From IMG/VR virus record IMGVR_UViG_3300029713_000071, positions 1 through 12,588 of that record: a DNA stretch of 12,588 bases; one strand, 5' to 3'. The notes below the pieces were generated by a model. The model searched no databases and was not told the DNA's origin. It saw only the letters and a list, made by a program, of their open reading frames with translations. Below, piece by piece: positions 1-12,588 of this stretch. The number at the start of each line of letters is the position of its first letter. The first letter of the stretch is position 1. The position numbers and the translations under genes are program-made. The DNA is from a virus.

Positions 1-78
1 TCTATCTTGCCGCCCTCGCTCCAATAGCCGTAGTTGTAGGCCGTCTTTGTGTCGTGGCTTGCATGGTTTAGCGCGTTT
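1..78. repeat. Terminal direct repeat, left copy (circular-closure overlap)
   Basis: tctatcttgccgccctcgct...gcatggtttagcgcgttt is identical base for base to 12511-12588. It lies inside a minus-strand ORF. Confidence 0.95.
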
Positions 79-296
79 TGCCTGGTTTCGGCTGTGAAAA
101 CCCAGCTCAAACCCTTACGGCTTACCGCGAAATGCTGTAGCAACGGCCTTTTCTCTTGAATGTTGCGCCGGATTACGCCGCTTGCTTCGCTCATGGTTAG
201 CCGGTCTATTTGGCTTGCGTCTACTTCGCCATTTGCTATCTGCTCGTGAAAGTGTGCCTTTATCCAGGCTGTTTGCTTTTCGCTTGCCGGTTTCAT
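1..296 (-). CDS. Hypothetical protein, N-terminal part of a 138-aa junction-spanning ORF (continues at 12510)
   Basis: Absent from the ORF track because it runs off the window edge. ATG at 296 (cat at 294-296). Hand translation: MKPASEKQTAWIKAHFHEQIANGEVDASQIDRLTMSEASGVIRRNIQEKRPLLQHFAVSRKGLSWVFTAETRQNALNHASHDTKTAYNYGYWSEGGKI, with no stop down to base 1. In-frame GTG and TTG alternatives lie just upstream (305, 311). No family recognised. Confidence 0.6.
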   Translation of the reverse strand, partial: MKPASEKQTAWIKAHFHEQIANGEVDASQIDRLTMSEASGVIRRNIQEKRPLLQHFAVSRKGLSWVFTAETRQNALNHASHDTKTAYNYGYWSEGGKI

Positions 297-342
297 TGCT
301 ACCACGCCCAATGGTCGCTAGCGTTGCCCGTTGCCATAGCTC

Positions 343-753
343 CTACCTTCCGAACATCTCGCAAACCTTTAGCCACTCTTCTATAGAAATGTCGCGTGGC
401 TTGTCGGTTTCCGGGTCGTAGCTAACGGCAATGAACGTTCCGAAAATCACGTCGTAGAGGTCGCCGCGCTTTACTACGCTCTTGTAGTCCATCTGGGAAA
501 GATAGCCTTCTTTCTCCATGTGGTCGTTAGCGTAGATAGCCCGGTTAGGCGTTGAGCCGTTGAGCGAGGATTCTTCGTTGACGTAAATCAATGGTTCGTC
601 GCCCCAAAGAACGCTATAGGCTTCTACGGGGCCTCCTACTTCCCTTTGGAACGCGCCCAGGTAGCTAGCTTCCAGGCCTTCCCGGTCTTCCGGCTCTACT
701 TCCTTCAAATACGGGTCGCGCCCAGGCTCAATAACCGCAATGTGGATGCCCAT
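343..753 (-). CDS. DUF3846-like protein, function unknown
   Basis: 136-aa ORF with ATG at 753 and AAAGGG 8 nt upstream. The pattern IAVIEPGRDP...LGAFQREVGGPVEA...IYVNEESSLNGSTPNRAIY...YDVIFGTFIAV...ISIEEW matches my recollection of the DUF3846 family, common on Firmicutes mobile elements. Confidence 0.6.
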   Translation of the reverse strand: MGIHIAVIEPGRDPYLKEVEPEDREGLEASYLGAFQREVGGPVEAYSVLWGDEPLIYVNEESSLNGSTPNRAIYANDHMEKEGYLSQMDYKSVVKRGDLYDVIFGTFIAVSYDPETDKPRDISIEEWLKVCEMFGR

Positions 754-785
754 TTGTGCCGCCCTTTCTTTGTCGATTATAAAGG

Positions 786-815
786 CTACTTGTCCATTGT
801 AGTCTATTTGTCCAT
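786..815. promoter_or_regulatory. Two 12-bp direct repeats (CTAYTTGTCCAT) overlapping the promoter; candidate operator
   Basis: ctacttgtccat at 786-797 and ctatttgtccat at 804-815, 18 bp apart. One overlaps the -10 and start site, the other sits in the spacer. Confidence 0.5.
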
Positions 816-824
816 TTGTGTCAA
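796..824 (-). promoter_or_regulatory. Near-consensus sigma-70 promoter for the cargo and maintenance operon
   Basis: Minus strand reads TTGACA (824-819), a 17-nt spacer, then TACAAT (801-796), about 40 nt upstream of the ATG at 753. Confidence 0.65.
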
Positions 825-840
825 TTGGAATGTTGTACCA

Positions 841-856
841 TTCTTACATTCTTTCA
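841..856. promoter_or_regulatory. Octamer doublet TTCTTACA TTCTTTCA just upstream of the -35
   Basis: Tandem 8-mers at 841-848 and 849-856, the same motif family as at 3427-3442, 7466-7535, 8021-8036 and 8318-8333. Confidence 0.45.
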
Positions 857-873
857 AAGCCTATCCAGGCATA

Positions 874-920
874 GAAAAACGGCCCTCTAGAATCGCTTCT
901 AAGGCGTTCTAAAAGGCCGC
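874..920 (-). terminator. Weak candidate terminator after the head-closure gene
   Basis: Minus strand: CGGCC...TAGAAgcgaTTCTA...GGCCG, then TTTTT (plus-strand aaaaa at 875-879). The stem is long and imperfect. Confidence 0.3.
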
Positions 921-982
921 TTCGAGTATTTGCCCATTGCCGCGCTAACGCGCCGCTACGTGGCTCTCTGTGGCTTCTGGGG

Positions 983-1384
983 CTATTTCCCGTTTTGGGC
1001 TAGCTTCTTGGGGTCGTAAGGGATTATGGGGCTAATGGTATTGCCGTCCTTTCGGCTACCATACAAAACCATGTCGCGCGTATAGTCCTCGTATGGGTCA
1101 ATGCGCGTAACCTGGTAGAGAATGCCCCTATAGCCTATTACTAGGTCGCTGGGGTAAGCCGTGCGCAAGCAATCCAGCCAATTAACCCGGAAAAGGCAAT
1201 CTTCCTTTGTGGTCGTGGTGCTGCTCGCATAGACAAGGCTTGCCGAAAGCTGTTTGAAGTAAGCCCAGATACTAGGCTGCGGGTGTACCGGCATGTATCC
1301 GTCAACCGGAAAGCCCTCCGCGTCCCTATAGCTTAGCTTCTTGTAGATAACAATCTTCTTATCCTTTAGAACCTGGTTAGCCAT
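983..1384 (-). CDS. Head-closure / head-tail adaptor protein (HK97 gp9 / SPP1 gp16-like)
   Basis: 133 aa, GAAGGAGGG RBS 6 nt before the ATG at 1384. The C-terminal pattern LFRVNW...DLVIGYRGILYQVTRIDPYEDYTRDMVLYG resembles the Phage_H_T_join family. It sits in the head module. Confidence 0.6.
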   Translation of the reverse strand: MANQVLKDKKIVIYKKLSYRDAEGFPVDGYMPVHPQPSIWAYFKQLSASLVYASSTTTTKEDCLFRVNWLDCLRTAYPSDLVIGYRGILYQVTRIDPYEDYTRDMVLYGSRKDGNTISPIIPYDPKKLAQNGK

Positions 1385-1398
1385 TTCTAGCCCTCCTT

Positions 1399-3039
1399 CT
1401 ACAGTGCGTTTAGAAACTCGTTGTAGTGCTCGTAAAGCCCTACGTAAGCGTCCAGTAGGCTTGCCGTGCCGTCTATGCGCCGCTTCGCGTTGCTGTTCTT
1501 AACCGGAACGATGTTGCCGTTACGGTCTTCCTGAATGCCGGTGTTTGTAAGGCACCATTTCAAAACCGGGTTGTTGTTGTAGATAACCTTCTTTGCCTGT
1601 AGGTCTGCGCCCAGGTTTTGCATGGGCAAGGAAAGCGTTTTAGCGCCCTGTATGCAACGCTCCATAGGAAAGCCGTAGCCCTCCATTTCCTCAACCCAGT
1701 AACGCGCGCTCCAACTGTCGTAGTAAACCCACAAAGGCGTTATGCCGTGCTCTTTGACTATCTCCAAAAACCATGCCGTTACGTCGCTGTAGTTAATCGT
1801 GTTGCCCTTGCAAAGCCGCACTAAACCGGCTTCTAGCCATTTGTCGTAGGGTATTTTCTCTTGCTCTACCCTCTGCGTGAAATTCTCTTCCGGTAGCCAA
1901 TACATTTGATGTATGTAGCGCTTGTGCGTCTCCGGGTGCATCATTAGAACCGTTGCGCATGTTAGGTCGGTCGTTAGCGACAAATCCGCGCCGCCAATGG
2001 CATACGCGCCCCGGAAGTCTTCAAGCGAAAATGTCTCTTCGTTGTTGATGCTGTCAAAGTCCAGCCACGCGTTATAGCGCGTCTCCCTTACGTTGAAGTC
2101 CTTGCAAAGGATGCCGCTAAGGTCTTTGGGGCTTTGCTTCGCGCGCTCCACCTTGGCTACAAGGTCTTCTAGCTTTTTAATCCGGCCTAAGCCTGGGTTG
2201 GCTTTGAACCATGCCGCCGGGTCTGTCCACTCGGCTTTAGCGTCCAGCTCGTAAATGATGGGCAAAAACGTAGGGTCGTTGATAACGCCGTCTACAACCT
2301 TACATGCATACTCGTAAGTATCATCGAAGATGCATTCGCGCACGGTTCCGGCCGTGGTAATCATCACTAGCAGGGGTTGCCGCCTAGCGCTTTGGCTCTG
2401 CTTCATGACCTCGTACAAATTGCGGTCTTTGATGCCGTGCAGCTCGTCAATGATTACGCAACTGCTGTTCAAGCCGTCCAGGGTGTCGCTGTTCTTGCCC
2501 AGGGCTTGCATCTTGCTCATAGCAGCCGAAAAATACAAATCGGTCTTGCGCTTCTTTATGTGCTTCCGTAGGTATGGGCTTTGGCTTACCATGTGGCAAA
2601 CTTCGTCAAAGATTATCTTTGCCTGGTCTTTCTTCGTGGCCACGCTGTAGATTTCCGCCCCGGCTTCGTTATCCGCAAGCATCATGTAAAGGGCTATGCC
2701 CGCTAGCATGGTGCTTTTGCCGTTCTTGCGCGCAACCATAAAGAAGGCTTCGCGGTACTTCCGCAAGCCTGTTTCGCTATCGACAAAGCCGAAAAGCGCG
2801 CTAATAAAGGCCTTTTGGAAAAGCTCTAGCCGCACGGGTTGCCCCGCCCATTCGCCCTTTGAGTGCTTGCAAAAGCGTTCTATGAACTCGATAGGCCGGT
2901 TTGCCTTCGCTTCGTCAAAGCGATATTTGCCGGGGTTGTCCATGTCGTAGACTAGCCGCGCGTATTCCTTCCTAACGCGCTTGCTCGTTACGATTTCCCC
3001 GGCTTCTATCTTGTCGGCGTATGCCTTAATCCAGTTCAT
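1399..3039 (-). CDS. terL: Terminase large subunit (Terminase_1 family)
   Basis: 546 aa with Walker A VARKNGKST, a Walker B-like CVIIDELH, and a C-terminal nuclease-type region. It lies immediately downstream of the small terminase gene. Confidence 0.9.
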   Translation of the reverse strand: MNWIKAYADKIEAGEIVTSKRVRKEYARLVYDMDNPGKYRFDEAKANRPIEFIERFCKHSKGEWAGQPVRLELFQKAFISALFGFVDSETGLRKYREAFFMVARKNGKSTMLAGIALYMMLADNEAGAEIYSVATKKDQAKIIFDEVCHMVSQSPYLRKHIKKRKTDLYFSAAMSKMQALGKNSDTLDGLNSSCVIIDELHGIKDRNLYEVMKQSQSARRQPLLVMITTAGTVRECIFDDTYEYACKVVDGVINDPTFLPIIYELDAKAEWTDPAAWFKANPGLGRIKKLEDLVAKVERAKQSPKDLSGILCKDFNVRETRYNAWLDFDSINNEETFSLEDFRGAYAIGGADLSLTTDLTCATVLMMHPETHKRYIHQMYWLPEENFTQRVEQEKIPYDKWLEAGLVRLCKGNTINYSDVTAWFLEIVKEHGITPLWVYYDSWSARYWVEEMEGYGFPMERCIQGAKTLSLPMQNLGADLQAKKVIYNNNPVLKWCLTNTGIQEDRNGNIVPVKNSNAKRRIDGTASLLDAYVGLYEHYNEFLNAL

Positions 3040-3048
3040 ACGCCGCCC

Positions 3049-3414
3049 CTATGGCCTTGCGTCCAGGAAGGCCATAAGCTCGTCTTCCGCGCCCTTCGCT
3101 TCGTCCTTGGGCAAAAGCTCGCAAAGCTGTCTGTAAAGAAGGCTGTAGCGCTGAATAAGCGTGCTGTAGCTCTTTAGCGCTGGGCTTTCCCTAAGCATTT
3201 CTTGTTTGCCGTTCTTGAAAAGCTCCACCGCGCCTTTTTCGTCCACGTCCGCGCGCAACTCTTCAAGCGTGCAAGCCATGAAAACTAACTCACGGGTCAA
3301 GCTGTCCGCTACGGCCTTCTTCGATTCCGGCACGGCCTTGGCAATCTTGTTGAGCTTGCGCGTTTCTGCGCGCCTGGTTTTGTCTTTGTCTATCTCCATG
3401 CTATCTACCCCCAT
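3049..3414 (-). CDS. terS: Putative terminase small subunit (P27-like)
   Basis: 121-aa helical, charged protein directly upstream of terL. The segment EELRADVDEKGAVELFKNGKQEMLRESPALKSY resembles the P27 small-terminase pattern. The second ATG at 3399 (MEIDKDK...) has GGGGG 8 nt upstream and may be the true start. Confidence 0.6.
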   Translation of the reverse strand: MGVDSMEIDKDKTRRAETRKLNKIAKAVPESKKAVADSLTRELVFMACTLEELRADVDEKGAVELFKNGKQEMLRESPALKSYSTLIQRYSLLYRQLCELLPKDEAKGAEDELMAFLDARP

Positions 3415-3758
3415 TTCAAGTAATCATGTAAGCATGTAAGCATACTTACCCCCCTCCTATGGGAAACCTCGGAGAGGTTTAGAGAGGTGGGCGCTGTGAT
3501 TAAGTGGCGGGCTGCTCCGCCTTCGCCCTGGGGGCGTTCGGGGAATGGTTACCGCTGTGTAAGACGCTCCGAATAGCAGCCACTAGCGCGAAAGAAGGAG
3601 TTAGTAGGGCTAATAGCTGTTGCCTTGGTCTGCTTCCCCGAAAACCAGGCTTCTAGCCTTTGGGTTACTAGCCGGTTGAGCGTCCCGGCAAAGCCCCCGC
3701 CGTCTGTCCGCCTGGCAAGCATCCCTAGCCGTTACCCGGAACGCCTTGCACAACGTAC
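3415..3758. other. 344-bp non-coding HNH-terS spacer; probable cos / terminase recognition region
   Basis: It is by far the largest gap inside the head operon, with short GC hairpins (aaacctc-gga-gaggttt, ggcgg-gctgct-ccgcc, cgccc-tgg-gggcg, aggct-tct-agcct). HK97-like HNH-dependent cos phages place cos next to terS. Confidence 0.4.
3427..3442. promoter_or_regulatory. Octamer doublet TGTAAGCA TGTAAGCA upstream of terS
   Basis: Exact tandem 8-mers at 3427-3434 and 3435-3442, followed by an inverted half CTTAC at 3445-3449. Confidence 0.45.
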
Positions 3759-4061
3759 CTATTCCTTTACCAGGTTGCCCGCTGCATCGAACCGCAAGCC
3801 CTCCGCCGTCGCCCTGCTCGTGAAGTGCTCGTGTTGGTGGCACGTCTGGCAAAGCGCTTCCAGGTTGTCCCAGTTGAGCGTTACGTTTGGGTCGTTGATG
3901 TTGGCGGGCGTTATATAGGTCTTGTGATGGACTATGAAGGCCGGTCGCCCGCAACGCTCGCATACATAGTGCTTGCTCTGCATGTAAGCCCTTTGGGTAT
4001 CCCTCCATGCCTTAGACGTGTAGAACGCCTTTGCAAACTCCTTCATAGTCCACCACTCCAC
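3759..4061 (-). CDS. HNH endonuclease (terminase-associated type)
   Basis: Contains CERCGRP...IVHHK...NLEALCQTCHQHEH (CxxC plus HNH/His-Me finger). The GVG-like GTG at 4061 or, more likely, the ATG at 4046 (MKEFAKAFYTSKAWR) is the start. Confidence 0.85.
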   Translation of the reverse strand: MEWWTMKEFAKAFYTSKAWRDTQRAYMQSKHYVCERCGRPAFIVHHKTYITPANINDPNVTLNWDNLEALCQTCHQHEHFTSRATAEGLRFDAAGNLVKE

Positions 4062-4065
4062 CTAG

Positions 4066-4341
4066 CTAGCCCACGTGCGCTACCGCCTTTAGCAGGTTGT
4101 CAATTGAGCGTTGCAGCTTGTCCGTGTCGGCCTGGGTCGGGTCGTACCAAAGCGACAAGAGGAACTTTGTAGCCGTCTGGGCAAGCGGGCTTGCCGCCTG
4201 GTCTTCTACGGTTAGGCCGGTCGCAATCGTGATGTATTGCGCCGCGCCCTCGATAAGTCCGGCAATAACCGCGTCATTGTCGGTGTTGTCCAGGCGCAAC
4301 CACTCGCGCGCTTCGTCCAGGCTGATAACCGCGTTAGTCAT
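4066..4341 (-). CDS. gp6-like head-tail connector (Phage_connect_1-like)
   Basis: 91 aa. The N-terminus ISLDEAREWLRLDNTDNDAVIAGLIEGAAQYI is the typical motif of this family. It lies directly after the capsid gene, with a GGGGAGGG RBS. Confidence 0.7.
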   Translation of the reverse strand: MTNAVISLDEAREWLRLDNTDNDAVIAGLIEGAAQYITIATGLTVEDQAASPLAQTATKFLLSLWYDPTQADTDKLQRSIDNLLKAVAHVG

Positions 4342-4361
4342 ACGTCAAGCCCTCCCCGCTA

Positions 4362-5621
4362 CTACTTGCTTGCAACGGAAAGCTTCACGAAAGCATCCGG
4401 GGCAATAACCTTGGTATCCGCAATAGCCATGCCGCGATAGTCGATAAGGCCGGAACGGAAAGCCGACTGGGTAGAAGACTCAACCGCAATGCCGTTGGCA
4501 AGGTTGTAGCCCAGGTAATTGAAGTCGCCGAAATAGGCCACGTTATCCGCCACAAAGTCATCAACGACAACATCAAAGCCAAGAATCTTGCCGATGGTCT
4601 CGTTACGCGGGTCGGGAACAAAGATAGGCTTCTTGTTATCGTCCACCATGCCATAGAAGGCCGTGTAAAGGGTCGCGTTGTTCATAACCCACTTAGCACG
4701 ACGGGCATAGCCGCGCTTCAGAAGGGCAACCGCCTTTACAACGTCCAGGTAGGCAATAGAACCGCCCGCCGCTACGGTAACGCTGTTCTTAGCGTCCCAG
4801 GTAACGCCCTTCTCAAGTCCCATGCCCTCGCCGGTGCCGGTGCCGTTGATAAGGCCGTCCGCGATGCACTCCATAACGCAGTTGGTGAGCTCGTCGGTAA
4901 GGTAGGCTTCGAATGCGTTAATGCTCATAGCCTTAACCTTCGCGCTGATAGAGAAAATCTTGATAATCTCGTTAGCGTCGAAGGTAACGTTAGTGATACC
5001 GGGCTGCTCGGTGTTCACGGTCGCGCCCTCGGTGTGCCATGCCGCCTTAGCGGAAGGCGTGGCAACCGGAACGGCAATCTTAGAAGGCATGTTGAAGGCG
5101 CGGGCGATGGAAAGCGCGCCGCCCTCGGTGCGTGCCTTGCTGACAATCTCGTTAAGCGTCTGGGTGGGGATGATAACCGGCGTGTTGCCGCTGGTCGTGT
5201 AAGCGTCCGCCGCTCGCTTCTCCACGTCCATAGCGCGGGTAAAGGCGTTCTTCTCGGCCTGGGTAAGGCTCTTGCCGGTAAGCGTCTTGTAGAAGGCGCT
5301 ACGGTACTCGGCACTTGCGAAAACGTCGCCCTTCACGGCCTGGTTGCTACCACCGGCAAAGCTCATGCCGGTAATGGGGTTGTAGCCGCGCGCTTCCGGC
5401 TCCTGCGCGCCCTGTGCGCCGCCCTGGTCGCCCTGGTCGCCCTGCTTCTCCTGCGCGTTAGCCTTGGCCTCGGCAAGGCCGGTAAGCTCGATATTAAGCT
5501 GCTTAATGTCTACGTTCGGGTCGGTCTCGATAAGTGCGTGCATCTCCTGCGCGCGCTTCTCAATCTCGGCAACGCTCATGTTGCGATAGTGGTTAAAAGC
5601 CTGCTGAACAGTGGTAAACAT
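4362..5621 (-). CDS. Major capsid protein, HK97 fold, with N-terminal delta/scaffold domain
   Basis: 419 aa, with a coiled-coil N-terminus followed by a capsid body (...NAFEAYLTDEL...GTGTGEGMGLEKG...NNATLYT...ILGFDVVVDD...). It follows the prohead protease, as in HK97-type modules. Confidence 0.85.
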   Translation of the reverse strand: MFTTVQQAFNHYRNMSVAEIEKRAQEMHALIETDPNVDIKQLNIELTGLAEAKANAQEKQGDQGDQGGAQGAQEPEARGYNPITGMSFAGGSNQAVKGDVFASAEYRSAFYKTLTGKSLTQAEKNAFTRAMDVEKRAADAYTTSGNTPVIIPTQTLNEIVSKARTEGGALSIARAFNMPSKIAVPVATPSAKAAWHTEGATVNTEQPGITNVTFDANEIIKIFSISAKVKAMSINAFEAYLTDELTNCVMECIADGLINGTGTGEGMGLEKGVTWDAKNSVTVAAGGSIAYLDVVKAVALLKRGYARRAKWVMNNATLYTAFYGMVDDNKKPIFVPDPRNETIGKILGFDVVVDDFVADNVAYFGDFNYLGYNLANGIAVESSTQSAFRSGLIDYRGMAIADTKVIAPDAFVKLSVASK

Positions 5622-5625
5622 GTTC

Positions 5626-6204
5626 TTACACCTCTTTCATAAGGATTTTGTTGCAAAGGATTAGCGCGTTGTTTAGCGCTTCAAGCCGGTTAAGCCCTTC
5701 CGTGAAGGCCTTGCGCGCTTCTACGCTTGCCGTCGGGTAGGCCGGGAATGGGCAAACGCTCACTTCGTATACCTTGGCAATCTTCGTAATGGTGCGCGTG
5801 TTGGTCTTCGGGTCGTAGCTGTCCCCGCCTTCCGGAACGGTGAAAGCAAAGCTCATGCCGCTTAGGTCGCCGCGCTTTACTGCCGTATGCACTGCCCTAG
5901 CGTCTTCCGTGTCCGGTAGTTCCGCCCTCATTTCAAGCCCCTGCCGGGTCAACTCAAAATGCAGGGTTTTGGGTGTGCGCGCCAACGGGATACGGTTCAA
6001 GTCGTGGTTGTACAAAAGTCGGCTGTCCGTAAGGTCTGCGCCGTCCAATGCTCCCCGCTTGATGATTTCCGTATAGCTTCCCGCTGGGTCGTTAATCGTT
6101 GTCGGTGTGTCGAAAACGATTGGCATACCCTCCAAAACAAGGCTTTCGCTACCCTCTGCCGTGGGTGCTTCCGCCCTGATTTCGGCTGTTCTTAGCTCTT
6201 TCAT
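5626..6204 (-). CDS. Prohead maturation protease, HK97 family (S78/U35)
   Basis: 192 aa. LLYNHD (catalytic His context) and LSGMSFAF (Ser context). The start overlaps the portal stop by 4 nt. Confidence 0.85.
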   Translation of the reverse strand: MKELRTAEIRAEAPTAEGSESLVLEGMPIVFDTPTTINDPAGSYTEIIKRGALDGADLTDSRLLYNHDLNRIPLARTPKTLHFELTRQGLEMRAELPDTEDARAVHTAVKRGDLSGMSFAFTVPEGGDSYDPKTNTRTITKIAKVYEVSVCPFPAYPTASVEARKAFTEGLNRLEALNNALILCNKILMKEV

Positions 6205-7424
6205 GCTGTTGCCCCCTCTGAATCCGCCGGGGCTTCGTCTCCGCTTGCCTTAGCAAGCTGGTAATCGTCCACGATGTCGGTATTTGCGTTGTTAAGGCTC
6301 TGCAAACGCTTGTCGCCGTCATCCACCGGCGGAAGGTTGAGAATCTCCAAAGCCTGGTTAATGGTGAGAATGCCGAACGGCATAAGCTCCCGAACAAGCT
6401 CCAGTTTGGTTTTGTTGCTTGCGAACAGAAGCCGCCCGCTGCCGAACTCAATAGCGTTGCCAAACGCTTGCTCGCGCTCCGTGAAAACCTTGCGCGTGAA
6501 CTCCAGGGAAAGAAGAAGGGCGAACGGCTCAATTACGGATTCGTAGAACGCGCCCCATTCGTCTTCTGAATAGGTCGAATTTACGATTTTCTCCGAAATG
6601 CCCAGGTAGTTGTAAATCTTCGTCGCCGTGGCCTTCGTCTGCTCCGGGTCAACCGTTACCGGCTTGCTGTCAATCGGTATGTATTCGCTCTTTGAATCGG
6701 TCGCAACGATGCCGCCATTGTTGGCAACGTCCAGGTACTCGGCAATAAAGGCTTCCTTGTCGGCCTTTAGCTTCTCGTCGCTGAGAATCTGGGTGTATTT
6801 CAGAATGCCGCGAATGGTCGCGCCGCTCTTGATGCCGTTAATGATTCCTTCGTTTTCGGTGTGCGCAAGCTCCAAAGCCGGGTAAATGGCTTCGTTTGAA
6901 TCGCCTAGCAGCTCGTCGCTGTTGTAGTTCCGGCGCAAGTGGATTAAATCGCAGTACGGCAAAACAACCTCGTTGCCGCTCCTGAAACGGAATTGCACGA
7001 AAAGCCGCCCGCTAGCGTCTGTAAGAAAGTCGGCTTGTACGCAAGTCATAGGGTAAATGCTTCTTACATTGCCGCGTTCGTCCCTGTCCAGGAAGGCAAA
7101 GGCGTTGTTGAAAAGGTAGTAATGCGTGGCAAGCTTATAAAGCATGTCGTAGGCGTTCATGTACGGGTTAGGCTGCGTCTGTAGAAGCCTGTTCAATACC
7201 CGGTCGCCTTCCGCCGTCCCCGCGCCGGTCTTGATAACGTGCGCGCCCTTCAACTTCGCACAGTTGCGCGCGATAGCGTCAACCGCTCCCCGGTAAATAT
7301 CGTTTGCATATGCGCCGCCGCTGAAAGCCGTAAAGGTAGCCATGTTGCCGTTAAGCGTCTCCGTTTTGGCAAGCTGCTTGCTGTTCGGCTTAAACCGGCG
7401 GGCTAGATTACTCCACCAACCCAC
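6201..7424 (-). CDS. Portal protein (HK97/SPP1-type Phage_portal family)
   Basis: I place the start at GTG 7424 (cac at 7422-7424) with GAAGG 8 nt upstream, giving (M)GWWSNLARRFKP...NDIYRGAVDAIARNCAKL... The 75 codons upstream in the track ORF (to 7649) cover repeat DNA and a hairpin and look non-coding. ATG 7343 is an alternative start. Confidence 0.85.
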   Translation of the reverse strand: MGWWSNLARRFKPNSKQLAKTETLNGNMATFTAFSGGAYANDIYRGAVDAIARNCAKLKGAHVIKTGAGTAEGDRVLNRLLQTQPNPYMNAYDMLYKLATHYYLFNNAFAFLDRDERGNVRSIYPMTCVQADFLTDASGRLFVQFRFRSGNEVVLPYCDLIHLRRNYNSDELLGDSNEAIYPALELAHTENEGIINGIKSGATIRGILKYTQILSDEKLKADKEAFIAEYLDVANNGGIVATDSKSEYIPIDSKPVTVDPEQTKATATKIYNYLGISEKIVNSTYSEDEWGAFYESVIEPFALLLSLEFTRKVFTEREQAFGNAIEFGSGRLLFASNKTKLELVRELMPFGILTINQALEILNLPPVDDGDKRLQSLNNANTDIVDDYQLAKASGDEAPADSEGATA

Positions 7425-7465
7425 GCGCTCAACCTTCTTTCGTCTTATTAGTAGGCTTGTAGTAA

Positions 7466-7535
7466 TTCTTACAATCCTACATGTAAAAGAATAACACAAT
7501 AACGCCATACATGCAAGAATGCAAGAATGTAAGAA
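7466..7535. promoter_or_regulatory. Inverted array of octamers upstream of portal; candidate late-operon operator/promoter region
   Basis: TTCTTACA (7466-7473) and ATCCTACA (7474-7481) face TGCAAGAA (7512-7519), TGCAAGAA (7520-7527) and TGTAAGAA (7528-7535) across a 30-bp spacer. Only weak -35/-10 candidates are present (TTGCAT-17-TATTGT on the minus strand). Confidence 0.45.
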
Positions 7536-7948
7536 CGCGCAACCCTGCAAGGTGCTTTCGTTCGCGTCCAGGCGATAGCAAGAGACAAGGCAAGGAATAA
7601 ATGCCCCTGTGGGGCGCTGTGGTGCCGTTTCTAGGCCGGTTTGTCCCAAAGATGGGCGAATACCCTAGAAAGCATTGAAAGACGCTCTAACGGCCTTCTA
7701 TGGCCTTATATGCCGGATGTTCTGCATACGTAGGCATTCGCGCTCAATCTGCCGCTTTCTCGCTGTCTTTCGTAACTCAAAAACTAGCCGTTCGCTTTTA
7801 GTCGAAAGCCCTACTAACAAGTGAGGTTAACTTGCTTCTACTAGTCCCCTCCATGTGCTTGTAAAGATGTAAAGACTTGTAGAACTTGTAGCCTTAGGGA
7901 AAATGTGGTCTTTCCACTGATGGATAGGCGTTTTTCCCGTTTTTCGCG

Positions 7949-8014
7949 TCATCACTTTGACACGGTTCAATCATCACTTTGACACGGTTTGCGGGACACT
8001 TTTACACGGTTTGG
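7949..8014. repeat. Iteron cluster 1: three contiguous 22-bp direct repeats
   Basis: tcatcactttgacacggttcaa (7949-7970), tcatcactttgacacggtttgc (7971-7992), gggacacttttacacggtttgg (7993-8014). Core CACTTT(G/T)ACACGGTT. Confidence 0.85.
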
Positions 8015-8246
8015 GCCATTTGTAAGATTGTAAGTATTCGCATAAAACCATGTAAAAGCGTTGCGCTTTCGTCCAGGGCTAAGAAGTGAAGGCCTGGGAA
8101 CTGTTGAAAAGCTCCTTCCCCTTGAAAGTCTCCCTACCCCTCATTCTTAGCGTGCTTGTTAAAGATGGAATAGGTTGGAATAGATTGGAGGAAACGCGAA
8201 AATCGCTAAAAACCCTGCTGGGTAGGCGTGTTTCGGGTTTTAGGGC

Positions 8247-8312
8247 GGGACACTTTTACACGGTTTACGGGACACTTTTACACGGTTTGCGGGACACTTT
8301 TACACGGTTTCC
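8247..8312. repeat. Iteron cluster 2: three contiguous 22-bp direct repeats; probable replication origin
   Basis: gggacacttttacacggttt + ac/gc/cc at 8247-8268, 8269-8290 and 8291-8312. Identical apart from the last two bases. Confidence 0.9.
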
Positions 8313-8399
8313 CAATTTGTAAGAATGTAAGCATAGCCCCAGAACCATGTAAAACCGTTCCGCTTTCGTCCAGGGGTTCAAGCATTCCGCACCACTGAC

Positions 8400-8425
8400 A
8401 AAAACAAAAACGCCCCGCTGGGGCG
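8400..8425 (-). terminator. Rho-independent terminator after the primase-polymerase gene
   Basis: Minus strand: CGCCCC-agc-GGGGCG (8425-8411), then TTTTTGTTTTT (8410-8400), about 70 nt downstream of the stop at 8496. Confidence 0.75.
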
Positions 8426-8495
8426 TTCTCGTGCCATTTTAAGGCGCTCAAATTCAATTCATGGGCAAATACTCAAAGAGGGGTGAAAAACGGCT

Positions 8496-9533
8496 CTAAA
8501 CGGCTCCTGTGGCCTTTTGGCGCACATATTCGGAGTATGTAACGGGTCTGCTTTCCTCTTCCCCGTTCTTCCTGGCCCTCTTTATCAGTCGCTCTATTTC
8601 GGTTTGTCCGAAGGTCTGGTTACCCCTACGCTTTTCGTCCCAACGTTCCGGCTCTAGCCTGTAAAGGCCGCTTTGCCTAAAGAGTGCGTCTATCTGTGCC
8701 GGGTTTGCGTCCGTGTAAAAGATTAGGTCGTTTAGCAAAGCCGCCCTTGCTTCGCTGTAGCCGTCGTTAACGCCTGGGTAGTCGCTTGTGTCCCCGCTCC
8801 ATAGCTTCGCTATCCTGTGCCGGTTCTGTCCTCTGAACATACGCCCCTTTATCGCGTCCAGGTCGCCGCTAACGGCTTGCTGTGGCTTCGTGTAAGCCGT
8901 TCTAACGGCTTCTTTCGCCGCCGCCTGGGTCTGGTTGCCGCTTTGGTCTACAAAGGCGTTGTAGACGTTTTCCAGGGCTTCCGGCGCGTCCTTAATCTCG
9001 CGCCGCCCCTCGAACACTCTACCGGTAAGGATTATGTAGCGCTCTTTAGCGTAAATCTCTATTTCCGGCTTCTTTCCCGTGCCGCTAAAGTGGCAATCCC
9101 TTAGAAGGCCCCTTTTCTTTTCCAGGATTAGGCCGCTTTTCCGCGCGATGATGTGAAAGCCCCGCCCGCTTTGGCTAACCTCTGTGTAGCTGTCCACGGC
9201 TTCGATAATGTCCGCCGCTTCCGGTAGGATGTAACCGTTTCGGTCTATCACGTTATCCAGGTCTATAACGATGTAATCGTCTGTGAATACAAAGCCCAGG
9301 CCGCGATACGTCCCGCCCTTTACGGCTTCGTAGCACGCTTCAAAGCTCGCCCATGTCTTAGGGTCTGTCGTGCTCGCCGCCCGCCTGGTTACCGGGTTGT
9401 ATGGCCGCTTTAGCTCCGATTGGTCGCCGCCATAGACTAGCCACTTAGCCTTAGCCTTTAGCTCTTCCGGTATGGGCTTGTATCGTCCCATGGTCTTAGC
9501 AAAGCTTGCCGGTATGCGCTTGCGTCTCGCCAT
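8496..9533 (-). CDS. AEP-superfamily DNA primase-polymerase (Prim-Pol) without a helicase domain
   Basis: 345 aa. KWLVYGG...KRPYNP...DPKTWASFEAC...GLGFVFTDDYIVIDLDN (DxD), SYTEVSQSGRGFHII (sGxGxH), EIEIYAKERYIILTG. C-terminal YSEARAALLNDLIFYT...IDALFRQSGLYR...RWDEKR... is like the primase-associated domain of phage/plasmid primases. No Walker A motif. Confidence 0.8.
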   Translation of the reverse strand: MARRKRIPASFAKTMGRYKPIPEELKAKAKWLVYGGDQSELKRPYNPVTRRAASTTDPKTWASFEACYEAVKGGTYRGLGFVFTDDYIVIDLDNVIDRNGYILPEAADIIEAVDSYTEVSQSGRGFHIIARKSGLILEKKRGLLRDCHFSGTGKKPEIEIYAKERYIILTGRVFEGRREIKDAPEALENVYNAFVDQSGNQTQAAAKEAVRTAYTKPQQAVSGDLDAIKGRMFRGQNRHRIAKLWSGDTSDYPGVNDGYSEARAALLNDLIFYTDANPAQIDALFRQSGLYRLEPERWDEKRRGNQTFGQTEIERLIKRARKNGEEESRPVTYSEYVRQKATGAV

Positions 9534-9535
9534 TG

Positions 9536-10705
9536 CTAGTCCGCCCCTTTCGGGTAAACCTCTACGCCGTCCGTAAGCTCTTCGTAGCGCTCAATAACGC
9601 CGTAGCTCAAAAGGTATTCAAGCTGCTTTCTTATCGCGTTGCGTATGCGTGACTTACGCTTTCGCACCGCGTCCGGTGTCTTGTCCTTCGAAAAGTCGGC
9701 TTTGTCGTAGAAGCTCTGATAGGAAAGCTTGTACATGTTCGGATAAATGCGTTTTCCCTGGCTCTTCATACTCGCAAGAGTGGTAACGCGGTCGCCTATC
9801 ATGTTCACAATCTCCACGTTGTAGCGCGTGCGCCTTATGCCCCAATTGAAGGGGCCTATCTTCTTTGGCTGTAGCGTGGTCATTTGCTTAACCGCTATGG
9901 CGTACTGTGCCAAAGCCGGAAGGGTACGGCCAAACTCGTAATAGCGCACGTTGTCGCCGTCTTCCGTCTTAATCGTCCAGCCGGTAACCTCTATAAGGTT
10001 GCCTTCGTGCTTAATGGCCCCTATTCCTGGGAATACGTCTAGAATCGCGTCTACGTCAAGCTCTATGTATATCTCGGCCATTTTTACCAGGCTGGCGTGA
10101 AGGCTTTCCAGCTGCTCTTCCGTGGGCTTCACTGTGCTCTTCATGACTAGCTTACGGTAAAGCTGTATGGGCGAAACACGGCATATCCCATGCTCTACCA
10201 GGTCGCAAACGGCAAAGAAGACAAACTTGTCTTCCGCGTCCAGGCCGTCCAGCACCTCGCGCACTTTCGATAGGTTCTTTAGAAGCACTCTAACGGTTCT
10301 GTCTTCGCGTTCGCCGGTAAGCTCTGCGCCCACAACCTTAACAACGGCCTGTGTCTGTCGCTCGATGTGCCTAAACTTCCCTTCCGGGTCTATTCCGAAA
10401 AGGCTACGGGTAACGTTGTCGTTCGAGAGCTGGTAGCCCTCATATTCCCCGTGTAACGTCTGCTTTTTCTCGCCGCCCATAACGGCTTCTATAACTTCGT
10501 CCAATTTCACTTCCTTCAATTCCCCCTCGCTACCTGCAAGCTCCATTTCGTCCAGGTATCCAGCGCTTGCGCCGTCTTTGAATGTGATTACGCCTTTCTC
10601 TATGAGTGCGCCCACAATCGAAAGAAGGGCTTCTTTGCGCTGCTTTTCGTCCTTGATAACGGTTAGCTTGCCGGTGATATAGTCGATAACTTCGCTATTT
10701 CGCAT
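9536..10705 (-). CDS. Hypothetical 389-aa protein; candidate replication initiator / iteron binder (context only)
   Basis: ATG at 10705 with AGAGG upstream, overlapping the preceding gene by 11 nt and ending 2 nt before the primase start. No NTPase motif. The basic C-terminus (KRKSRIRNAIRKQLEYLLSYGVIERYEE) looks like a winged-helix-type DNA-binding end. No family recognised. Confidence 0.7.
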   Translation of the reverse strand: MRNSEVIDYITGKLTVIKDEKQRKEALLSIVGALIEKGVITFKDGASAGYLDEMELAGSEGELKEVKLDEVIEAVMGGEKKQTLHGEYEGYQLSNDNVTRSLFGIDPEGKFRHIERQTQAVVKVVGAELTGEREDRTVRVLLKNLSKVREVLDGLDAEDKFVFFAVCDLVEHGICRVSPIQLYRKLVMKSTVKPTEEQLESLHASLVKMAEIYIELDVDAILDVFPGIGAIKHEGNLIEVTGWTIKTEDGDNVRYYEFGRTLPALAQYAIAVKQMTTLQPKKIGPFNWGIRRTRYNVEIVNMIGDRVTTLASMKSQGKRIYPNMYKLSYQSFYDKADFSKDKTPDAVRKRKSRIRNAIRKQLEYLLSYGVIERYEELTDGVEVYPKGAD

Positions 10706-10895
10706 CCTTCGCCGCCTCTTTGCCGTTTAGGTAATCGTCTATGGCTTCTTGGGTGAAATACCAGGTGCGCCCCATTTTGTGACCAACTATCTTTCCCGCG
10801 TCCAAGTAGCGCTTTATCGACCTGGTAGAACACTCGAAAACTTCCGCTACCTCGTGAATGCTGTAATAAATCTTTCCTCTGATTGTCACGGCCAT
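10695..10895 (-). CDS. Small HTH DNA-binding protein, excisionase/AlpA (HTH_17/MerR-like) family
   Basis: 66 aa. YSIHEVAEVFECSTRSIKRYLDAGKIVGHKMGRTWYFTQEAIDDYL is the classic pattern. AGGAGGG RBS 7 nt before the ATG. Confidence 0.8.
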   Translation of the reverse strand: MAVTIRGKIYYSIHEVAEVFECSTRSIKRYLDAGKIVGHKMGRTWYFTQEAIDDYLNGKEAAKDAK

Positions 10896-10898
10896 TTT

Positions 10899-11240
10899 TT
10901 AACCCTCCTGCTCTTCTGCTTGCTGCTTGTCGGCTGCGTGAATGCCCTTTAGCCGTTCCAGGATTTCCCGGTCTACTTCGTCCAGGCCGCGCCCGTCCAG
11001 GTATTCGGTAATGATTGTTTGTAAGGCTTCTTTCTTGCTTACTCTGTTCATAAAGGCGTAATCGTTGAACCGATTTACTACGGCTTCGTCCAGGCGAAAG
11101 CTAACTACAACGTCTTTGCTCTTTTGCCTGGTTGCCCTTGCCGCCTTTGCCGGTGTCTTCGTCGGCTCTTCCGGCTCTAGCTCTACCGGGTCGCCCATAT
11201 AGTCTTCAATCGCCCTAAACTCAAAGTTCTTATCTGTCAT
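10899..11240 (-). CDS. Ribbon-helix-helix protein; ParG/ParB-like centromere-binding partner of ParA
   Basis: 113 aa. ATGA overlap with the parA stop. The disordered basic N-terminus is followed by VVSFRLDEAVVNRFNDYAFMNRVSKKEALQTIITEYL (a beta-alpha-alpha RHH pattern). Confidence 0.65.
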   Translation of the reverse strand: MTDKNFEFRAIEDYMGDPVELEPEEPTKTPAKAARATRQKSKDVVVSFRLDEAVVNRFNDYAFMNRVSKKEALQTIITEYLDGRGLDEVDREILERLKGIHAADKQQAEEQEG

Positions 11241-11998
11241 TTCTTGCCCTCTTTCTCTAGAATCTCGTTCGTTAGCGCCTGGTAGTCTTTTGCGCCGTTG
11301 CTTCGTGGTGCGTATGCGAAAACGTCTTTGCCCTCTGTTGGTGCTTCTGCTAACGCTATGTTGTTGCGAATCCTGGTAGCAAAGACGGCTTCCGGGAAGA
11401 GTTCTTGTAGCTTCGCTTCTACCGCGCCCGTTAGCTTCTTCCGCCGGTCGTATTTCGTTATGAGTACGCCGGTAACCTTGATATCCGGGTTAATGCGTGC
11501 CTTTGCCGCCTTGATAGTCTGCATAAGCCGCGCGATACCTGCTAGCGCTAGATATTCCGGCTCTAGTGGTATGTAGACTTCCGCGCAAGCTGCAAGGGCG
11601 TTGAGCGCCAATACCCCTAGCGATGGGCTGCAATCTATAAGAATGTAGTCATACTTACTTGTAATCGGCTCTAACGCTTGCTTTAGAAGCTGGTTACGCC
11701 CCGTTTCGCTTGCGCTTTCGATGCCTGTTAGCCGTAGGTCGCCCGGTATGAGGTCGCAACCGTTCGGAAGGCTCCTAATAACCTCTTCCGCCTTCCTGGT
11801 CCCCTTCAAAAGCTCGTAGGCCGTCTTATCGTCTCTTGAAACGTTGAAAGCAAAGCTTGTAGTAAGGCTTCCTTGCGGGTCTAGGTCAATCAACAAAACG
11901 CGCTTGTCCGCCTTCGCAAGTCCCGCGCCAACGTTTACGGCTGTCGTGGTCTTCCCAACGCCGCCCTTCTGGTTCACTATCGCTATTACCTTTGCCAA
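11237..11998 (-). CDS. parA: ParA/Soj-family partition ATPase
   Basis: 253 aa. Deviant Walker A NQKGGVGKTTT, LLIDLDPQGS, ILIDCSPSLG. TTG start at 11998 with AAAGGGG upstream. Confidence 0.9.
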   Translation of the reverse strand: MAKVIAIVNQKGGVGKTTTAVNVGAGLAKADKRVLLIDLDPQGSLTTSFAFNVSRDDKTAYELLKGTRKAEEVIRSLPNGCDLIPGDLRLTGIESASETGRNQLLKQALEPITSKYDYILIDCSPSLGVLALNALAACAEVYIPLEPEYLALAGIARLMQTIKAAKARINPDIKVTGVLITKYDRRKKLTGAVEAKLQELFPEAVFATRIRNNIALAEAPTEGKDVFAYAPRSNGAKDYQALTNEILEKEGKK

Positions 11999-12001
11999 TG
12001 G

Positions 12002-12388
12002 TTACGCCCCTTTCTTTTTTCTCGCGTTTTGGTTGCCAAGTTTTGCGCGGCGCATTCGTTCCAGGGCTTCCGGTGTGTAAACGCCCGTCTTTCCCTTGTT
12101 CCAAGGCTCCGCGCCGCCCGGCGCGATGTTCCAACCAAGTTCCGTTAGTCTCATGCTCTTTATTTCTTCTTTTTCCAGCTGGTAGGCCTCTTCCTGCGTC
12201 AAGCCCTCGGCAATGATTAAGTGCCGTATGTTGTCCCAGCCGTATTTCTTGACTTGCTCATAGAACCGGCTCGAATGCCTGTAGCCCTCGCCATGGTTCC
12301 ATCTTTGCTCCGGCTTCTGCTTGGTAACCCCTATGTATATCCGGGGTACCGGGTCGCAGGGCGTGATATGTGCGTATAGCGTGTACAA
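12002..12388 (-). CDS. Free-standing GIY-YIG nuclease with a NUMOD3-like C-terminal motif
   Basis: 128 aa, TTG start at 12388. TLYAHI...RIYIGVTKQKPEQRWNHG (GIY...YIG...R), QLEKEEI (catalytic Glu context), ELGWNIAPGG (GYN-type Asn), then NKGKTGVYTPEALERMRRAKLG. Aligns by eye with the I-TevI catalytic domain. Confidence 0.8.
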   Translation of the reverse strand: MYTLYAHITPCDPVPRIYIGVTKQKPEQRWNHGEGYRHSSRFYEQVKKYGWDNIRHLIIAEGLTQEEAYQLEKEEIKSMRLTELGWNIAPGGAEPWNKGKTGVYTPEALERMRRAKLGNQNARKKKGA

Positions 12389-12389
12389 G

Positions 12390-12588
12390 CTACGCCCCCT
12401 TTATCTCGTGCTTTATTTGCTCGTTCTGATACCTAACGGCTAAGTCTCCCCGGCCTTCTAGGTACTCGATGCAAAGCCGCTTGTTTAGGAATGGCCCGAA
12501 TAGCTCGCCGTCTATCTTGCCGCCCTCGCTCCAATAGCCGTAGTTGTAGGCCGTCTTTGTGTCGTGGCTTGCATGGTTTAGCGCGTTT
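12390..12588 (-). CDS. Hypothetical protein, C-terminal part of the same 138-aa junction-spanning ORF
   Basis: The frame continues from base 1 across the join (codon GAC is split by it): ...GGKIDGELFGPFLNKRLCIEYLEGRGDLAVRYQNEQIKHEIKGA. Stop TAG is cta at 12390-12392, 1 nt before the TTG start of the next gene. Confidence 0.6.
   Translation of the reverse strand, partial: NALNHASHDTKTAYNYGYWSEGGKIDGELFGPFLNKRLCIEYLEGRGDLAVRYQNEQIKHEIKGA
12511..12588. repeat. Terminal direct repeat, right copy (circular-closure overlap)
   Basis: 78/78 identity with bases 1-78. Confidence 0.95.

Follow-up and report, generated by a model that had tools for sequence, protein, structure and literature searches.

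We have analyzed arrays of a short tandem repeat, 8-bp units of the TGTAAGAA type, in the IMG/VR virus record IMGVR_UViG_3300029713_000071. The stretch examined (the window) covers positions 1 to 12,588 of this record, its entire length of 12,588 nucleotides. Positions 1-78 recur at 12511-12588, and this 78-bp terminal redundancy points to a circular, or circularly assembled, unit of 12,510 bp. All genes of the window lie on the minus strand. A maintenance operon begins with a DUF3846 gene (343-753, identified by Pfam scan), followed by orf139 (~139 aa), which crosses the junction of the circle, and a GIY-YIG gene (12002-12388). Next come ParA (11237-11998, 253 aa), a small Walker-type partition ATPase without an N-terminal helix-turn-helix (HTH) that matches PF13614 (8e-53, residues 2-175), PF01656 and PF10609; a 113-aa ribbon-helix-helix (RHH)-like protein (10899-11240); a 66-aa protein of the HTH_17 or excisionase family (10695-10895; PF12728 at 7e-11, TIGR01764); a 389-aa protein, rep (9536-10705); and, last, a primase-polymerase (8496-9533). 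The operon ends at an intrinsic terminator (8404-8432, minus strand) with a 13-pair stem and a T run, downstream of which lies a non-coding region of 1.07 kb containing two clusters of 22-bp iterons. The head genes then follow in the order portal (6201-7424), prohead protease, major capsid protein, head-tail connector and HNH, and a non-coding region of 344 bp separates HNH from terS (start ATG at 3399), terL and a head-completion protein.

By Pfam the head and packaging module is complete, comprising portal, protease, major capsid protein, connector, HNH, TerS and TerL. No tail genes were found, and a tail module would not fit into a circle of 12,510 bp. The circular contig carries ParA, iterons and a primase-polymerase, and no integrase was found among the 16 open reading frames (ORFs) scanned. 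Because it has no tail genes, and no integrase among the scanned ORFs, we regard the window as a capsid-forming satellite probably kept as a plasmid, that is, a satellite-plasmid, and one of Bacillota. The relatives of its TerL in genomes are all from this phylum. A megablast search of the whole unit against annotated phage and plasmid collections gave no match.

The preliminary description of this DNA had placed octamers of the TGTAAG type, always in tandem, at six non-coding control points (sites i to vi) and had proposed that they bind one regulator. The eight strings it quoted are all exact, in letters and in position. Tandem doublets of the form TGYAAG-NN-TGYAAG (TGYAAGNNTGYAAG) number five, all on the plus strand and all non-coding, against a mean of 0.01 and a maximum of 1 in 500 dinucleotide-preserving shuffles, which is far above chance; TGYAARNNTGYAAR occurs six times against 0.05 expected from the shuffles. 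A scan blind to the motif, for any period-8 tandem with at most one mismatch, returned about 14 loci, the six long ones being of the TGTAAG type. Units that pass 7 bits with a position weight matrix (PWM) have a density of 8.4 per kb in non-coding DNA versus 1.1 per kb in coding DNA, a 7.7-fold difference (Fisher p = 1e-6). The PWM scan places no doublet in any gene, as had been noticed before. The intergenic position of all sites also holds, that of site iii depending on the start of portal. For this gene the in-frame GTG at 7424 was taken, which is preceded by AAGAAGG and fits the 406-408-aa portals of relatives; a longer ORF that starts with TTG and reaches 7649 is spurious, since the portal calls of relatives fit the GTG.

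When units are scored in phase, degenerate ones extend array ii to 3-4 units (3419-3450) and the first half of site iii, array iiiA, to 3-5 units of mixed orientation (7450-7489), while arrays i, v and vi have two units each and array iiiB has three. An array in the window has 2-3 strong units, or 3-5 including in-phase weak ones. Five of the six control points are robust loci, but two of these (v and vi) lie inside a duplicated module of 61 bp, 84% identical, and are not independent, and site iv is doubtful. Single perfect TGTAAGAA octamers occur in genes at 7020-7027 and 7061-7068, an inverted pair 41 bp apart in portal, and a further one at 5623-5630 lies at the protease/capsid junction, adjoining the ribosome-binding site of the capsid gene. 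These three vary at synonymous positions in relatives and were treated as chance occurrences.

A search of IMG/VR for related loci with the 389-aa protein returned nothing, and relatives were instead gathered via protein homologues, those of the 389-aa protein and of TerL, which gave more than 200 loci. The relatives are circles of 12.1-12.9 kb from gut and fermenter metagenomes. Eight elements (the window, W, together with L003, L005, L006, L008, L011, L064 and L228; the W class) keep arrays of the TGTAAGMA type at the same offsets, namely +58 and about +105 relative to the start of portal, +28 relative to the long terS ORF and +103 relative to DUF3846, as well as beside the iterons. In the L001 class (L001, L002, L066, L144-L146 and others) TerL is 87% and TerS 82% identical to that of W, and six to eight elements carry AAGACAGC in two to four copies upstream of DUF3846, portal and terS, within flanks alignable to the W sequence. 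At these three promoter-proximal positions a third lineage, L070, carries units of ATGTAAAC. In many other lineages, 8-9-bp units of the GTAAACA or GTATACA type overlap sigma-A-like promoters or flank them, both ahead of portal and ahead of the maintenance operon; some of these units lie in the spacer or downstream of the -10. Arrays of four units are found in L064 (174-205), in L002 (2640-2675) and, as palindromic arrangements, upstream of portal.

On this comparative evidence the arrays are selected cis-elements, because they are conserved while the single octamers within genes are not. The promoter-proximal arrays have been replaced all together, at the same positions and with their flanks conserved, which argues for one specific reader behind all of them. 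The idea of a single regulon thus gains support from the concerted swap of octamers in the sister clade. The coupling of replication and maintenance, head genes and terminase that had been suggested stands at the level of where the sites are placed. The further target named at that time, cargo expression, has to be replaced: what lies downstream of array i is really the whole maintenance operon, from DUF3846 through parA, RHH, HTH and rep to the primase.

Array i (841-856, minus strand) consists of two units, in gene sense TGAAAGAA TGTAAGAA, with PWM scores of 14.8 and 11.6 bits. It ends 16 nt upstream of the -35 of P_E (796-824, minus strand), a promoter with TTGACA at 824-819, a spacer of 17 nt and TACAAT at 801-796 that matches 11 of the 12 consensus positions. 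P_E, whose hexamers are kept in L001, is the only recognisable promoter for the maintenance operon; it lies upstream of DUF3846, parA and RHH and drives the contiguous minus-strand genes for DUF3846, orf139, GIY-YIG, ParA, RHH, HTH_17, the 389-aa protein and the primase-polymerase. At the same position the W-class relatives have two to four units (four in L064), and the L001 class has three or four copies of AAGACAGC instead. The array stands beside P_E in both clades, and this position would suit putative binding sites through which the par operon regulates itself. Activation from this place, as first proposed, is not what the comparison favours: P_E is already TTGACA-17-TACAAT, the distance of the array upstream of the -35 varies in relatives, in L187 the array is downstream of the -10, and the RHH regulators known to use such arrays are repressors (PMC9499535, PMC3413123).

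Upstream of portal there are two arrays. Array iiiA (7450-7489) contains AGTAGGCT (weak), TGTAGTAA, TTCTTACA, ATCCTACA and TGTAAAAG (weak), and it spans a candidate portal promoter made up of TTTACA (7487-7482), 17 nt and TACTAC (7464-7459), taking up its flanks and, with two of the strong units, its spacer. The -10 of this promoter is weak and its assignment is that of a candidate, deduced from the sequence. The 8 W-class elements keep the array, to which L006 and L011 add a third unit. Array iiiB (7512-7535, plus strand) is the triplet TGCAAGAA TGCAAGAA TGTAAGAA by in-phase PWM scoring and lies, in gene sense, 24 nt upstream of the candidate portal -35. Its counterpart in W-class relatives is either a triplet or a palindromic array of four units, TGTAAGCG TGTAATCA TTCTTACA TTCTTGCA.

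Array ii (3419-3450, plus strand) is composed of AGTAATCA (weak), TGTAAGCA, TGTAAGCA and TACTTACC (inverted). It is found about 20-45 nt before the terS start, between terS and a conserved hairpin with a G-run; it is kept in all W-class elements, and the L001 class has two copies of AAGACAGC swapped into the conserved flanks. The hairpin (AAACCTCTCC..GGTTT), the G-run and then TAAACA or TAAG are situated just upstream of terS (3445-3500 of the window). This feature is family-wide, with an equivalent region in about 20 lineages, and is a candidate for a cos site or terminase recognition region. Such a location could mean that the arrays are packaging signals, either TerS sites or accessory sites of cos, or alternatively that they are promoter elements themselves, given that the junctions of the doublets make TACAAT and TACATT hexamers. 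We hold both versions to be very improbable. TerS is well conserved between classes that have different octamers, and most arrays are away from cos; as for promoters, in those that doublets would form, close relatives differ in the spacing between -35 and -10 (18 to 20 nt), and both the orientation of the arrays and their distance to the true promoters vary. TerS was rejected as reader of the octamers, as was TerL, on account of this conservation across the octamer classes.

The remaining two robust arrays lie among the iterons. Array v (8021-8036, plus strand; TGTAAGAT TGTAAGTA) has an inverted iteron (8045-8066) on one side and, on the other, iteron cluster 1 with its three 22-bp units (7947-8012, minus strand), and is centred between the two. 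Array vi (8318-8333, plus strand; TGTAAGAA TGTAAGCA) is the paralogue of array v (84% over 61 bp) and is likewise centred between an inverted iteron (8342-8363) and cluster 2, which has three 22-bp units at 8245-8310 on the minus strand (AAACCGTGTAAAAGTGTCCCGC in gene sense). This composite of inverted iteron, octamer doublet and direct iteron(s), at 7947-8066 and 8245-8363, is kept in the W class, and it persists in L228, L064 and L005, where the iteron sequence itself differs. Doublets v and vi were also considered as the -10 of promoters (TTTACA-18-TACAAT and TTTACA-18-TACATT are predicted), a reading that is not convincing because the spacing ranges over 18-20 nt in close relatives and L001 lacks the arrangement.

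The same neighbourhood raises the question of whether the octamers might be sites for a replication initiator, the 389-aa protein or the primase, in the manner of the short origin iterons of SaPIs or as half-iterons. Two doublets do lie between inverted and direct 22-bp iterons, the iteron core contains the octamer-like TGTAAAAG, and relatives that lack ParA have paired 8-9-bp arrays near replication genes. However, L064 and L228 keep W-type octamers at all sites, with a 389-aa protein only 37-40% and a primase 52-61% identical to those of W and with other iterons beside the first doublet. These mosaics rule out the Rep/primase and iteron system as reader of the octamers. Conversely, the iterons of L001 are W-like and its octamer is different. 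Most arrays, moreover, are at promoters or terS, far from the origin, and we rate initiator sites as very unlikely.

Site iv (7860-7875, plus strand; two copies of TGTAAAGA) scores 1.9 bits per unit, which is within the top ~1% of background, and among relatives it recurs only in L228, and there partly. Its membership in the octamer family is doubtful and is better dropped. Next to it is a tandem repeat of a 9-mer (7876-7893; CTACAAGTT CTACAAGT in gene sense) that is common to L228 and L066. As L066 belongs to the AAGACAGC class, the presence of the CTACAAGT repeat there means that the site iv module does not co-vary with the octamer class. An 11-mer tandem repeat at 8168-8195 (CCAATCTATTC CAACCTATTCC) is conserved in the W class. 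Since neither repeat co-varies with the octamer class, the 9-mer and the 11-mer may be sites for another protein.

The protein that reads the octamers is most likely encoded by the element itself. As candidates an AlpA-like HTH protein, the RHH protein and a factor from a helper phage had been listed, and co-variation narrows this list to the RHH protein: on balance we favour the view that TGTAAGAA-type octamers are unit binding sites of the 113-aa protein encoded after parA. The start of its gene overlaps the parA stop at 11237-11240, and the order ParA, RHH with N-tail, HTH_17 is kept in about 50 related elements; by analogy this layout of parA and RHH is that of a type Ib ParB (PMC9499535, PMC3130281). 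The protein is laid out as a disordered basic N-tail (residues 1-43), a ribbon VVVSFRL (44-50), two helices (52-64 and 69-81) and a C-terminal helix. In an AlphaFold2 model the two helices follow the strand-forming VVVSFRL with pLDDT 80-86, and residues 1-43 are below 50. Matches in PHROG are to CopG-like and Arc-like repressors (residues 36-87, E 1e-5 to 0.02), the top Foldseek matches are CopG 1ea4 (TMt 0.75, rmsd 2.7) and Arc, with many RHH antitoxins ranking below them, and the top PDB profile match is the RHH protein SvtR, 2kel. A Pfam scan of the protein gave no match, and no homology to omega or ParG was retrieved at E <= 10 in either the single-sequence or the PDB profile search. Together these results give moderate and consistent support, at the level of models and profiles, for a ribbon-helix-helix fold of the CopG/Arc/MetJ kind.

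Across the relatives the octamer class follows the fold core of the RHH protein best and HTH_17 less strictly, and it does not follow Rep, the iterons, TerS or TerL. In the W class the core (KDVVVSFRLDEAVV.RFNDYAF...SKKEALQTII) is about 90% or more identical, including L064 and L228, even though the tails at either end bear no relation to one another; the RHH proteins of the AAGACAGC class are 96-100% identical. The 66-aa HTH_17 protein, which is AlpA/excisionase-like, would be the other element-encoded reader; like AlpA in the phage-inducible chromosomal islands (PICIs) of Gram-negative bacteria, it would serve the head and packaging genes as activator or antiterminator. Its gene adjoins the RHH gene in all relatives that bear ParA, its recognition helix CSTR[ST][IL]KRYLDAG and wing are kept across the W class including L064 and L228, and alpA is needed for the induction of capsid-forming PICIs (cf-PICIs; bioRxiv 10.1101/2022.09.08.507074). 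The AAGACAGC class, however, has two HTH_17 subtypes that are only 64-69% identical and whose predicted recognition helices and wings diverge at the very positions that separate the two octamer classes, and yet their octamers are identical. In the GTAAACA lineages, likewise, the HTH recognition helices vary widely and the RHH ribbon TRATFI is nearly constant. Contiguous units with 8-bp phasing in both orientations are typical of RHH dimers, not of winged-helix monomers. P_E, moreover, is already a consensus promoter. Reading of the octamers by HTH_17 is unlikely.

The RHH protein is itself modular, as comparison of 10899-11240 with L228 6004-6336, L064 1500-1829 and L001 1391-1696 reveals. In L228 and L064 an N-tail like that of the L001 class (MA[KR]KGFDLEK..) is joined to a DNA-binding core of W type. 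This suggests that the tail (which perhaps contacts ParA) and the core (which would set DNA specificity) recombine independently.

If the RHH protein is the reader, one dimer would occupy each 8-bp unit and neighbouring dimers would bind cooperatively. Such binding would explain why units are found only in contiguous, in-phase groups of two to four, whatever their orientation; what is seen on the DNA side is just this, contiguous 8-bp units in both orientations and no singles that look functional. Operators at the promoter of the maintenance operon would give autorepression of parA, RHH, HTH and rep, those at the iteron origins would exert control there, those at the candidate promoter of the head operon would silence the capsid genes, and those ahead of terS and terL would silence packaging. 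A single protein would in this way tie plasmid maintenance to the silence of the capsid and packaging genes. The same arrays are probably also dispersed centromeres, because the RHH protein is a ParA partner with a flexible basic N-tail. The binding by RHH, the repression and the centromere function are all inferred.

Several observations weigh against this scheme. The structural scores for the RHH fold are statistically weak, with E > 1 for all Foldseek matches and E = 0.48 for the PDB profile. The ribbon residues predicted to face the DNA are nearly alike between the octamer classes (V-S-R versus L-S-R), and HTH_17, which is inherited together with RHH, likewise has a recognition helix that is well conserved within the W class. 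Ribbon and motif map onto each other loosely: L187 has a VVSFRM ribbon yet GTAAAC units with a 9-bp period, and TRATFI ribbons pair with both GTAAACA and GTATACA. A simple code from ribbon residue to base across the family was discarded, this mapping being too loose. On the DNA side, no promoter is recognisable in the terS region, and the candidate portal promoter is weak and has a changed -35 in L008. The centromere role in particular is uncertain by analogy with omega of pSM19035, for which ParA activation takes 4 or more contiguous repeats (PMC9499535), versus short arrays of 2-4 units here. Finally, there are unrelated phage contigs that carry octamer doublets in inverted pairs, and no match to the RHH hidden Markov model (HMM) was found in the fetched DNA of these contigs.

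Those contigs bear on a different proposal, that the reader is not encoded by the element but is a helper-phage or host protein and that the arrays sense infection by a helper. In its favour stand these same octamer doublets, which occur as inverted pairs in unrelated phage contigs without an RHH-HMM match, and three contigs of temperate siphophages (L224-L226) that encode an RHH core almost the same as that of the satellite (85-91% identity at the nucleotide level over 176-250 nt). Three points tell against an outside factor: among mosaic elements, octamer class and the element's own RHH core change together; a host protein would leave unexplained the two octamer classes on structural modules that are 87% identical; and the phage protein is itself an RHH protein with the same core, which supports recognition by RHH and does not replace it. 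A reader from outside the element is accordingly given a low probability, and the element's own RHH protein remains the preferred reader. TGTAAGC also resembles a cre half-site and the boxes of WalR and PhoP, but neither the spacing nor the symmetry of the octamers matches these.

The siphophage contigs are 34-38 kb long, and the gene in question (L224 10001-10384, L226 10001-10435) encodes a protein of 127-144 aa with the satellite-like RHH core. Neither ParA nor HTH_17 is adjacent to it, the N-tail region of the satellite protein is missing, and TerL is only 25% identical; the RHH core is the only similarity of this phage gene to the satellites. In the 15-20 kb examined of each contig, TGTAAG/CTTACA occurs 0, 0 and 1 times against about 4.5 expected. 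L226 also shares a segment of 504 nt (87.5%) with satellite L064 (4272-4775). One could imagine that the octamer arrays are an interface of conflict between phage and satellite, where the phage RHH protein acts in trans on satellite operators, or heterodimerises, and so silences or induces the satellite. We think this improbable, but if it were true a captured master regulator would be serving as a weapon or as an induction signal.

A scan of IMG/VR for TTCTTACATTCTTRCA returned 91 loci, mostly single chance matches, with L064 as the only one from this family. Inverted pairs of TGTAAGAATGTAAGAA doublets to quadruplets, 60-300 bp apart, are found in unrelated IMG/VR phage contigs at L241 5582-5893, L245 5628-5764, L250 5426-5557, L291 7844-7922 and L295 11902-12230; in at least the case of L245, the pair surrounds AT-rich DNA.

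Among known systems, omega of pSM19035 is by analogy functionally the closest, and ParG and MetJ are the closest in geometry; the searches revealed no homology beyond the shared fold. Omega binds 7-bp repeats, of which two, direct or inverted, are needed for high affinity, a single one being weak, and its six parS sites overlap the three promoter regions of copS, delta and omega; it is both a global regulator and a centromere binder (PMC9499535). The satellite-plasmid resembles the omega/delta system in its small RHH protein with a flexible N-tail and its small ParA, in its contiguous, short, non-palindromic repeats that are direct or inverted, and in its several dispersed arrays that overlap promoters including that of its own operon (PMC9499535). 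It differs in the unit (8 bp, TGTAAGMA, versus 7 bp, WATCACW), in array length (2-4 units versus 7-10) and in its targets, which are capsid genes, terminase genes and iteron origins here and copS and a toxin-antitoxin pair for omega. ParG of the type Ib system ParG/ParF (TP228, with the parH centromere and the O_F operator) is an RHH centromere binder whose boxes have a strict 8-bp centre-to-centre phasing in both orientations, serve as operator and centromere, and are used to repress its own operon; an eight-residue ribbon sets its specificity (PMC3130281, PMC3413123). Its boxes, however, have a 4-bp core with AT-rich spacers and are arranged in sets of 8 and 12 at a single locus ahead of parFG, whereas here nearly the whole octamer is conserved and the arrays are short and scattered round the replicon. 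MetJ of gamma-proteobacteria also places an RHH dimer on each 8-bp metbox, requires at least 2 adjacent copies and has a dispersed regulon, with arrays mostly within ~75 bp of start codons (PMC3228920). Unlike the system described here, it is a chromosomal metabolic repressor with a corepressor and a palindromic metbox, and has no partition role.

As to the element, it shares with cf-PICIs and with their satellite-plasmid counterparts (cf-PISPs) the set of portal, protease, capsid, connector, HNH, terS, terL and head completion without tail genes, and its gene order is that of the cf-PICIs of Firmicutes (bioRxiv 10.1101/2022.09.08.507074). With the cf-PISPs of Vibrio it has in common parA and rep and, as far as its scanned ORFs go, the lack of an integrase (PMC13230959; bioRxiv 10.1101/2022.09.08.507074). 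Cf-PISPs, however, have been reported only in Vibrio and with an Stl-like regulator (PMC13230959), whereas the present element comes from metagenomes of Bacillota and has a ParA-RHH-HTH_17 module, a primase-polymerase and 22-bp iterons. We found no description in the literature of an octamer regulon for capsid-forming satellites or satellite-plasmids. What is new is the context and the targets, a putative ParA-linked RHH regulon over the origins and the head and terminase genes in satellite-plasmids of Bacillota.

If the RHH protein does read the arrays, one plasmid-type regulator would control the maintenance operon, the origins and the capsid and terminase genes of a 12.5-kb satellite-plasmid, the latter genes being those that a satellite needs for phage-mediated transfer. 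A global circuit of the omega kind would then have been extended to virion morphogenesis, and it would offer an answer to how episomal capsid-forming satellites hold their head genes silent until a helper comes. Satellite-plasmids, so far reported only from Vibrio, are here extended to gut and environmental Bacillota. The TGTAAGMA, AAGACAGC and GTAAACA-type units represent natural swaps of specificity; together with the mosaic proteins, whose tails and cores have been shuffled, they provide a ready dataset for the recognition code of RHH proteins and for orthogonal pairs of repressor and operator.

Relatives without ParA (L020-L024, L076, L095, L102 and others), some of them in chromosomes of the Bacillus group, lack the RHH protein too and are probably integrated, cf-PICI-like elements. 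They carry paired or inverted tandem arrays of 8-9-bp units (TTGTAACC, AGTAACAAG, ACGTGACAR and others) about 80-110 bp apart, an arrangement that resembles SaPI-type origins.

The window also contains paralogous blocks of about 100 nt, GGGCAAATACTC ... GGCCTTTTAGAACGCC ... GGCCGTTTTTC, at 860-960 (gene-sense) and as inverted copies at 7625-7740 and 8430-8520. An Rfam search of the window at E <= 1 returned nothing, so these repeated modules are not known RNAs. Terminator-like hairpins end two of the blocks, and their conservation is strong even between clades with differing regulatory modules.

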